Assembly (NCBI RefSeq): GCF_000027125.1
Contig: NC_017626.1
Reading direction: 5' to 3' (one strand)
Source of the DNA: Escherichia coli 042
GTDB taxonomy: Bacteria; Pseudomonadota; Gammaproteobacteria; Enterobacterales; Enterobacteriaceae
DNA: 64,000 bases
Both the position numbers and the translations under genes were made by a program. Position 1 is the stretch's first letter; every line of letters begins with the position of its first letter. This document shows positions 5,995-6,070 of the stretch, piece after piece. Below the pieces are notes generated by a model. That model was not told where the DNA came from, made no database searches, and saw only the letters and a list, made by a program, of their open reading frames with translations.

Positions 5995-6070
5995 TGGTGG
6001 CCCCTGCTGGACTTGAACCAGCGACCAAGCGATTATGAGTCGCCTGCTCTAACCACTGAGCTAAAGGGCC
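5995..6070 (-). tRNA. ileY: tRNA-Ile2 (anticodon CAU, lysidine-type), 76 nt including the encoded CCA
   Basis: Reverse complement reads GGCCCTTTAGCTCAGTGGTTAGAGCAGGCGACTCATAATCGCTTGGTCGCTGGTTCAAGTCCAGCAGGGGCCACCA, a cloverleaf with CAU anticodon matching E. coli ileX/ileY (recollection). Confidence 0.9.

Follow-up and report, generated by a model that had tools for sequence, protein, structure and literature searches.

The tRNA gene at positions 5995-6070 of the window, i.e., the whole 64,000-nucleotide stretch of Escherichia coli 042 DNA analysed here, is very probably ileY in a naturally segregating allele that carries a U·G wobble at acceptor-stem pair 6:67, and the allele would be an ordinary inherited variant. 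In the series that we propose, the pair would have passed from C6-G67, found in ileX and in other Enterobacterales, through the U6·G67 wobble intermediate to the U6-A67 of K-12 ileY. Earlier descriptions cover the gene itself, the two positions at which ileX and ileY differ, and the role of ileY as attB of phage 186, and the exact allele exists in public genomes; a literature search on allelic polymorphism of ileY, compensatory change in it, or its U·G state found nothing specific.

Identity and structure of the tRNA gene

At 5995-6070 on the minus strand, ARAGORN detected a 76-nucleotide tRNA whose anticodon is CAT, and the Rfam tRNA model RF00005 matched it over the full length of the model with 71.6 bits, the gathering score being 29. 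The minus-strand tRNA sequence is GGCCCUUUAGCUCAGUGGUUAGAGCAGGCGACUCAUAAUCGCUUGGUCGCUGGUUCAAGUCCAGCAGGGGCCACCA. The arms of its acceptor stem read GGCCCUU (5') and AGGGGCC (3') on that strand, and pair as G1-C72, G2-C71, C3-G70, C4-G69, C5-G68, U6·G67 and U7-A66. In window coordinates U6 is base 6065 and G67 is base 6004, where the plus strand reads A and C, respectively. All 21 stem pairs of the cloverleaf were found to be standard pairs. ARAGORN labelled the gene ‘tRNA-Met’, which is an effect of the anticodon only; the body is that of tRNA-Ile2 and not of tRNA-Met, being one nucleotide away from each of the K-12 genes annotated as tRNA-Ile(CAU), and identical sequences are annotated as tRNA-Ile in RefSeq. 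The first-pass annotation, made from the letters of the window, had named the gene tRNA-Ile(CAU) and had described the U6·G67 wobble; both statements stand, the first on the CAT anticodon and the one-nucleotide distance to each K-12 gene, and the second on the sequence itself and on the identical 76 nucleotides in 147 complete E. coli genomes. The features of the locus are as follows.

5995-6070, minus strand: very probable ileY, accessory tRNA-Ile2 (CAU, predicted to be modified to lysidine-AU), U6·G67 allele; from ARAGORN, Rfam, K-12 comparison and ileY-type flanks
6065, minus strand: tRNA position 6, U, which separates ileY from ileX; from the ileY alignment
6004, minus strand: tRNA position 67, G, which differs from A67 of K-12 ileY and makes the wobble; from the K-12 alignment and the table of ileY alleles
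6035-6037, minus strand: anticodon CAT, tRNA positions 34-36; from ARAGORN and the sequence
5992-6040, minus strand: tRNA nucleotides 31-76 plus 3 nucleotides, identical over these 49 nucleotides to the phage 186 attP core and an unoccupied potential attB; from the attP sequence
3789-5243, minus strand: ypjCB/DUF5507 gene, broken into two ORFs and lying downstream of the 3' end of the tRNA; from the ORF list and the annotation of an O158:H23 relative
6630-8882, plus strand: ygaQ-type alpha-amylase family gene, intact (750 amino acids), upstream of the tRNA; from the ORF list

On the opposite (plus) strand, 5997-6070 gave a sub-threshold Rfam match to ‘Plastid-ycf2 5'UTR RNA’ (34.3 bits, gathering score 65.7), which is almost certainly an artefact of reading antisense to the tRNA and was rejected.

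The position of the gene is that of the ileY orthologue: ypjCB lies on one side of it and the ygaQ-type amylase gene on the other, the argQZYV-serV cluster is about 34 kb away, and in alignment its immediate flanks agree with those of ileY loci rather than with those of ileX. A search of the 64-kb window for a second tRNA-Ile(CAU) copy found none; this is the one CAT tRNA in the window, with ileX lying beyond it. The neighbourhood has the look of a segment that was acquired horizontally long ago and has possibly been silenced, since the stretch from ypjCB through ileY to ygaQ is AT-rich (29-42% GC in 300-bp windows over 3000-9000), ypjCB is split (ORFs 3789-4886 and 4896-5243), a pinH-like serine-recombinase fragment is annotated just past ypjCB in relatives, and ileY is missing from about 46% of genomes.

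Comparison with the two K-12 paralogues

E. coli K-12 MG1655 served as the reference for the paralogues. Its ileX (GGCCCC...CAGGGGCC) has C6-G67, its ileY (GGCCCU...CAAGGGCC) has U6-A67, and the window gene (GGCCCU...CAGGGGCC) has U6·G67. Positions 6 and 67 have been described as the sole differences between ileX and ileY in K-12, where ileY can be deleted while the ileX transcription unit cannot (PMC11480407); the two reference genes are thus not identical. K-12 ileY (b2652) resembles the window gene in its locus between ypjC/ypjCB and ygaQ, in its U6, and in 75 of 76 nucleotides, and departs from it in A67 instead of G67 (U-A instead of U·G) and in a few SNPs in the immediate flanks. K-12 ileX (b3069), the essential tRNA-Ile2 gene, is likewise identical at 75 of 76 nucleotides, including G67 and the entire 3' half, but has C6 instead of U6, sits at another locus, flanked by mug and nfeF, and has a strong intrinsic terminator behind it. 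Placed beside the two, the window allele is a one-step intermediate between the K-12 ileX and ileY alleles, in which an ileY-specific 5' strand (U6) is joined to a 3' strand of the ancestral, ileX type (G67).

These comparisons also bear on the reference state given in the first-pass annotation, namely that canonical ileX and ileY both carry C6-G67. This is right for K-12 ileX and wrong for K-12 ileY, which is U6-A67 (PMC11480407) and has the very T at position 6 that, by the account of that annotation, would refute it. The wobble nonetheless survives this discovery, because K-12 ileY compensates for its U6 with A67 and the window gene does not. The base that had been held suspect, 6065 at position 6, is thus the wrong one; the departure from K-12 ileY is at position 67, window base 6004.

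Allelic variation and ancestral state of ileY

Allele frequencies were obtained as exact 76-nucleotide matches in 5,426 complete E. coli genomes, with the following counts.

ileX allele, pair 6:67 C-G: 5022 records
K-12 ileY allele, pair 6:67 U-A: 1727 records
Window allele, pair 6:67 U·G: 147 records
MS6198 type (plus C43), pair 6:67 U·G: 166 records
MRSN352231 type (plus A28), pair 6:67 U·G: 301 records
O157 type (U42, C43, C44), pair 6:67 U-A: 375 records

The ileY locus was found in 2910 of 5423 genomes and was missing from about 46%, e.g., ST131 and JJ1887. The U6·G67 state, summed over the window allele and the two further alleles that have it, occurs in 614 genomes, roughly one-fifth of ileY carriers, and U·G at 6:67 is thus a common state of ileY genes in complete genomes. 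Among the genomes with the window allele are those of O145:H28, O169:H41, O157:H16, O158:H23 and O78 strains. Most of the genomes with this allele have an unoccupied locus, since a 116-nucleotide query made of the tRNA and 40 nucleotides of native 3' flank matched 134 records at 99% identity or better. The first-pass annotation had offered a real polymorphism as one of two options, and the 147 genomes with the same allele decide for it.

The state of the pair outside ileY was examined by a scan of Enterobacterales in which positions 6 and 67 were left free (N) and each species was represented by a single genome, covering Citrobacter, Enterobacter, Salmonella, Klebsiella, Pectobacterium, Xenorhabdus, Hafnia, Erwinia and other genera. 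C6-G67 was found in 120 of 120 loci among the matches listed (at least 120 loci), and is the general state among those matches, which is not proof that U6 is absent outside E. coli. On the strength of this uniformity, C6-G67 looks to be the deep ancestral state. Among the loci sampled and the matches listed, U6 was seen at the E. coli ileY locus only, and it was present in every ileY sampled, i.e., 15 aligned loci (the window and 14 genomes) and four more loci with the window allele. The window allele is one base from the ancestral sequence, fewer than any other sampled ileY allele.

While ileX is nearly invariant (5022 exact matches), ileY is strikingly polymorphic, with at least seven alleles in the species-wide sample that differ at positions 28, 42, 43, 44 and 67. 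Among these alleles, pair 6:67 occurs as U·G and U-A, pair 27:43 as G·U and G-C, and pair 28:42 as G-C, G·U, A-U and an AxC mismatch, the G28·U42 wobble being the O157:H7 type of 375 genomes. Over nine distinct tRNA-Ile2 sequences, in which 6:67 takes the forms C-G, U·G and U-A, 98.9% of stem cells were standard-paired, and changes on both sides were found at three pairs, 6:67, 28:42 and 50:64. In the 15-sequence alignment, variable columns made up 5 of 76 (6.6%) in the tRNA and 78 of 626 (12.5%) in the flanks. The pairing, together with the lower variability of the tRNA than of its flanks, suggests that selection is still acting on tRNA structure at ileY.

G·U wobbles as intermediates in the compensatory evolution of RNA stems form a general population-genetic model. 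The present case resembles that model in that a single pair is represented by C-G, U·G and U-A in different paralogues and alleles, and in the G-C, G·U, A-U and AxC states of 28:42; it differs from the stepwise point mutation of the model in that part of the variation consists of mobile elements swapping the whole 3' half of the gene.

The alleles do not form a simple series. The four-gamete test failed for position 67 against 43 and for position 67 against 28 among the 15 aligned ileY loci, and near-identical immediate flanks were found with very different tRNA alleles in the same alignment; the test failure and the mosaic flanks indicate that ileY alleles have been shuffled by recombination, conversion or recurrent change. 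An ileY outgroup would be needed to tell which way position 67 has changed among the ileY alleles. One candidate conversion was followed up and rejected, viz. a short conversion tract from ileX that would have turned a typical O157:H7 into the O157:H7 strain TR01, a carrier of the window allele. TR01 and typical O157:H7 do show clustered differences at positions 42, 43, 44 and 67, but the TR01 flanks also differ from those of typical O157 and match strain 2824, so that the whole haplotype is different.

Phage 186-type elements and islands at ileY

Phage 186 is reported to integrate at both ileY and ileX (PMC3448106). Its attP carries tRNA nucleotides 31-76 with G67, and its RefSeq annotation gives a 36-nucleotide identity to the K-12 ileY attB, corresponding to nucleotides 31-66 and ending at the K-12 A67, with a predicted 7-nucleotide crossover in the anticodon loop. 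The match to the 186 core is 49 nucleotides in the window, as against the 36 of K-12 ileY.

Occupied loci in other strains revealed the outcome of such integration. In MRSN352231, ileY is directly followed by a P2/186-like prophage (about 33 kb; 15933-49576 of the extracted locus); the intact tRNA there joins host-type U6 and A28 to U43 and G67, and a partial copy (nucleotides 31-76) at the far end of the prophage has C43 and A67 and is followed by native ileY flank. In HB-Coli0, a 20-kb integrase island of the CbtA/YeeU type occupies ileY (85-19946 of the extracted locus) and carries genes for a CbtA/YeeU toxin-antitoxin and an Ag43-type adhesin; its intact tRNA equals the window allele over all 76 nucleotides, and the partial copy (nucleotides 30-76) has A67 followed by a K-12-type flank. 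In both strains the displaced 3' half of the host gene persists as the partial copy. The junctions of these two strains and the G67 of the phage 186 attP together show that the 3' half of ileY is rewritten as an ileX-type copy, i.e., that a 186-type prophage or integrase island in such strains overwrites nucleotides 31-76 with a copy bearing G67 and thereby turns U6-A67 into U6·G67. The sequence of ileY can consequently be an indicator of lysogeny.

The attL hybrids of HB-Coli0 and MRSN352231 share with the window gene a 5' part with host U6 and a 3' part with element-type G67. They differ from it in having element DNA right after CCA-AAT and a partial repeat (nucleotides 30/31-76, with A67) at the far end. 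At the window ileY no element was found, the 3' flank being native ileY flank, and a search of the 64-kb window with up to three mismatches allowed found the tRNA 3' half once and no partial tRNA repeat. The window gene is therefore not an attL hybrid of this kind, having a native 3' flank and a single 3' half. Host U6 combined with element G67 does yield U·G, so that a mechanism exists, which is a different matter from its being the origin of the allele in the window.

Related sequences were also encountered at other sites. The ileX locus of E. coli strain 12690 (2501-2576 of the extracted locus) has a CbtA/YeeU-type island right after ileX, and its tRNA has a variant T-arm in which C50-G64 is replaced by U-A, along with G59A and U60C. 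A sequence of this type, about 93% identical, is the best tRNA-Ile2 match in about 280 genomes, the essential ileX of which is apparently an island-junction hybrid as judged from this resemblance. Furthermore, about 89 E. coli plasmid records contain a tRNA-Ile2-like sequence of 80-90% identity, examples being NZ_CP194962.1 (154806-154874) and NZ_AP027678.1 (25878-25953), at least one of which is annotated as a hypothetical protein only.

Origin of the window allele

The absence of an element at the window ileY and the observation that G67 travels with its own flank haplotype make it most likely that the allele was inherited, either as a retained ancestral ileY state or as the product of an old conversion, rather than newly made. 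In the sampled ileY loci, G67 is linked to C at the seventh base after CCA (+7), and A67 goes mostly with T there, which looks like a set of linked, inherited haplotypes. On balance, a retained or old allele is mildly favoured as the source, conversion from ileX or from an element is a good deal less probable, and a fresh A-to-G transition takes the small remainder.

The strongest competitor of an ordinary inherited allele is that the window allele is secondary, a U6-A67 ileY the 3' part of which became G67 through gene conversion by ileX, through conversion between repeats during the integration of an element that was later excised, or through an A-to-G transition. In its favour, integration of an element demonstrably gives U6·G67 from U6-A67, HB-Coli0 displays the exact window allele made in this manner, the allele combinations fail the four-gamete test, and the near-identical flanks around very different alleles suggest that changes concentrate within the gene. 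Nevertheless, a precise excision in the anticodon loop restores the host 3' half, so that integration followed by excision would leave no scar by itself; the window has neither an element nor a partial tRNA repeat; the association of G67 with C at +7 looks like old haplotypes and not like repeated new events; and no ileY allele comes nearer to the sequence of ileX and the outgroups than the window allele, which is one nucleotide away. We consequently regard a secondary origin as unlikely, although it is the least unlikely of the alternatives, and an ordinary inherited U·G allele remains the preferred interpretation.

A broader and still more tentative proposal is that the stems of ileY are continually remodelled by elements that overwrite nucleotides 31-76 and by compensatory substitution, with the window allele as a preserved ancestral intermediate. 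If so, ileY with its G28·U42 and A28xC42 alleles would offer a natural series of mid-steps in compensatory RNA evolution, and the alleles might differ in TilS or IleRS kinetics or as an attB for 186-type phages (49 as against 36 nucleotides). The allele series of ileY can in any case serve as a small natural example of compensatory stem evolution along with the editing of a tRNA gene by mobile elements.

Expression and function of the U·G allele

It is possible that ileY is poorly expressed. Neither a consensus sigma-70 promoter nor a terminator was found close to the gene in a simple scan, although such a scan says little either way; the locus is AT-rich, Hha binds the ileY region in vivo (PMC2408971), and ileX is essential despite the presence of ileY. 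From these observations taken together low expression may be expected, in which case the near-neutrality considered below may in part mean that the gene hardly matters. The same observations could be carried further, to an ileY that is a decaying, effectively silent redundant copy with the wobble as a slightly deleterious change under relaxed selection. That ileY is missing from about 46% of genomes, can be deleted in K-12, and cannot replace ileX would fit such decay, as would the AT-rich, Hha-bound locus without a consensus promoter in the simple scan, and the A28xC42 mismatch of some ileY alleles. However, the full cloverleaf is kept, 98.9% of stem cells are paired, and compensatory changes are found at 6:67, 28:42 and 50:64, all of which argues for continued purifying selection on the structure; the variable columns are fewer in the tRNA (6.6%) than in the flanks (12.5%), and decay does not account for at least one of the two mismatch alleles, which is a chimera formed at a phage junction. 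Decay is thus an improbable explanation of the wobble, and a segregating allele of a structurally maintained gene is the better one.

An effect of the wobble on recognition of the tRNA appears less probable still. The first-pass annotation had attached importance to the pair on the ground that acceptor-stem identity elements matter for lysidinylation by TilS and charging by IleRS, and this relevance is not borne out, as the published determinants are all unchanged in the window (PMC11947777, PMC9976931). The acceptor-stem determinants of E. coli TilS are pairs 4:69 and 5:68, and in Burkholderia cenocepacia lysidinylation was robust after inversion of pair 6:67 (PMC11947777); the window tRNA has both C4-G69 and C5-G68. 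The determinants of bacterial IleRS comprise A73, C4-G69, U12-A23, C29-G41, some D-loop bases and the anticodon loop (PMC9976931). It was found that A73, C4-G69, U12-A23, C29-G41, A35, U36, A37 and A38 are all present in the window and invariant across the nine alleles. It is to be noted that the variants specifically tested in this published mapping are others than U·G at 6:67 in E. coli. The computed nearest-neighbour energies of the cloverleaf were -32.8 kcal/mol with C-G, -30.1 with U·G and -30.4 with U-A; with a stability within 0.3 kcal/mol of K-12 ileY, the wobble should cost nothing relative to the reference ileY. Moreover, K-12 ileY, with its U-A, is supplied on the rare-codon plasmid pACYC-RIPL, which includes the AUA tRNA, and a pair other than C-G at 6:67 is thus compatible with function. 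We infer that the window allele is functionally near-neutral, and that lysidinylation by TilS, charging by IleRS and reading of AUA should persist.

A U6·G67 that alters recognition by TilS or IleRS, and hence modification or charging, could be argued from the fact that the C-terminal domain of TilS reads the acceptor stem, from the distortion of helix geometry by G·U pairs, and from the effect on charging of G·U at acceptor positions 3 or 4 of other tRNAs (PMC9976931). Against this, TilS relies on 4:69 and 5:68 and the B. cenocepacia enzyme tolerates the inversion of 6:67 (PMC11947777), 6:67 lies outside the IleRS determinants (PMC9976931), K-12 tolerates both C-G and U-A at this pair, the U-A gene is the one that provides the extra copy of the AUA tRNA on pACYC-RIPL, and U·G is found at 6:67 in 614 genomes. 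Altered recognition is hence very improbable, and the U·G allele, as the ordinary variant that we take it to be, would matter little for the window genome.

Accuracy of the sequence and composition of the window

The second option of the first-pass annotation, a sequencing or assembly error (at 6065 or, as the comparison would now place it, 6004), draws on the single-base, error-sized difference from each K-12 paralogue, but it is effectively refuted by the identical 76 nucleotides in 147 independent complete genomes of several serotypes, by about 134 genomes that have the allele with its native flank, and by the same allele in the O158:H23 strain CFIAFB20140388, which is 99.9% identical to the window over 1.1 kb round the gene. 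The window genome may be taken to have a normal-looking accessory tRNA-Ile2 gene, for which no annotation or quality flag is needed.

A few further observations concern the window as a whole. It is a mosaic, being 99.8% identical to O158:H23 CFIAFB20140388 over 538-14336 and 98.4-98.8% identical beyond. Over 1-25000, the top identity among the 5,426 complete E. coli genomes was about 98.3%, and this collection thus contains no close representative of the source lineage. A segment of about 1.9 kb between ygaM and nrdH (20790-22737) is missing in the O158:H23 relative; it encodes a MocR-type regulator of 444 amino acids on the minus strand (GntR helix-turn-helix and aminotransferase domains) and, divergently, a protein of 143 amino acids of the carboxymuconolactone decarboxylase (AhpD-like) family. 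Lastly, the argQZYV-serV cluster at 40183-40910 consists of four tRNA-Arg(ACG) genes and a tRNA-Ser(GCU), as in K-12, while the O158:H23 relative has only two Arg copies there, which reveals copy-number variation in this tandem tRNA array.
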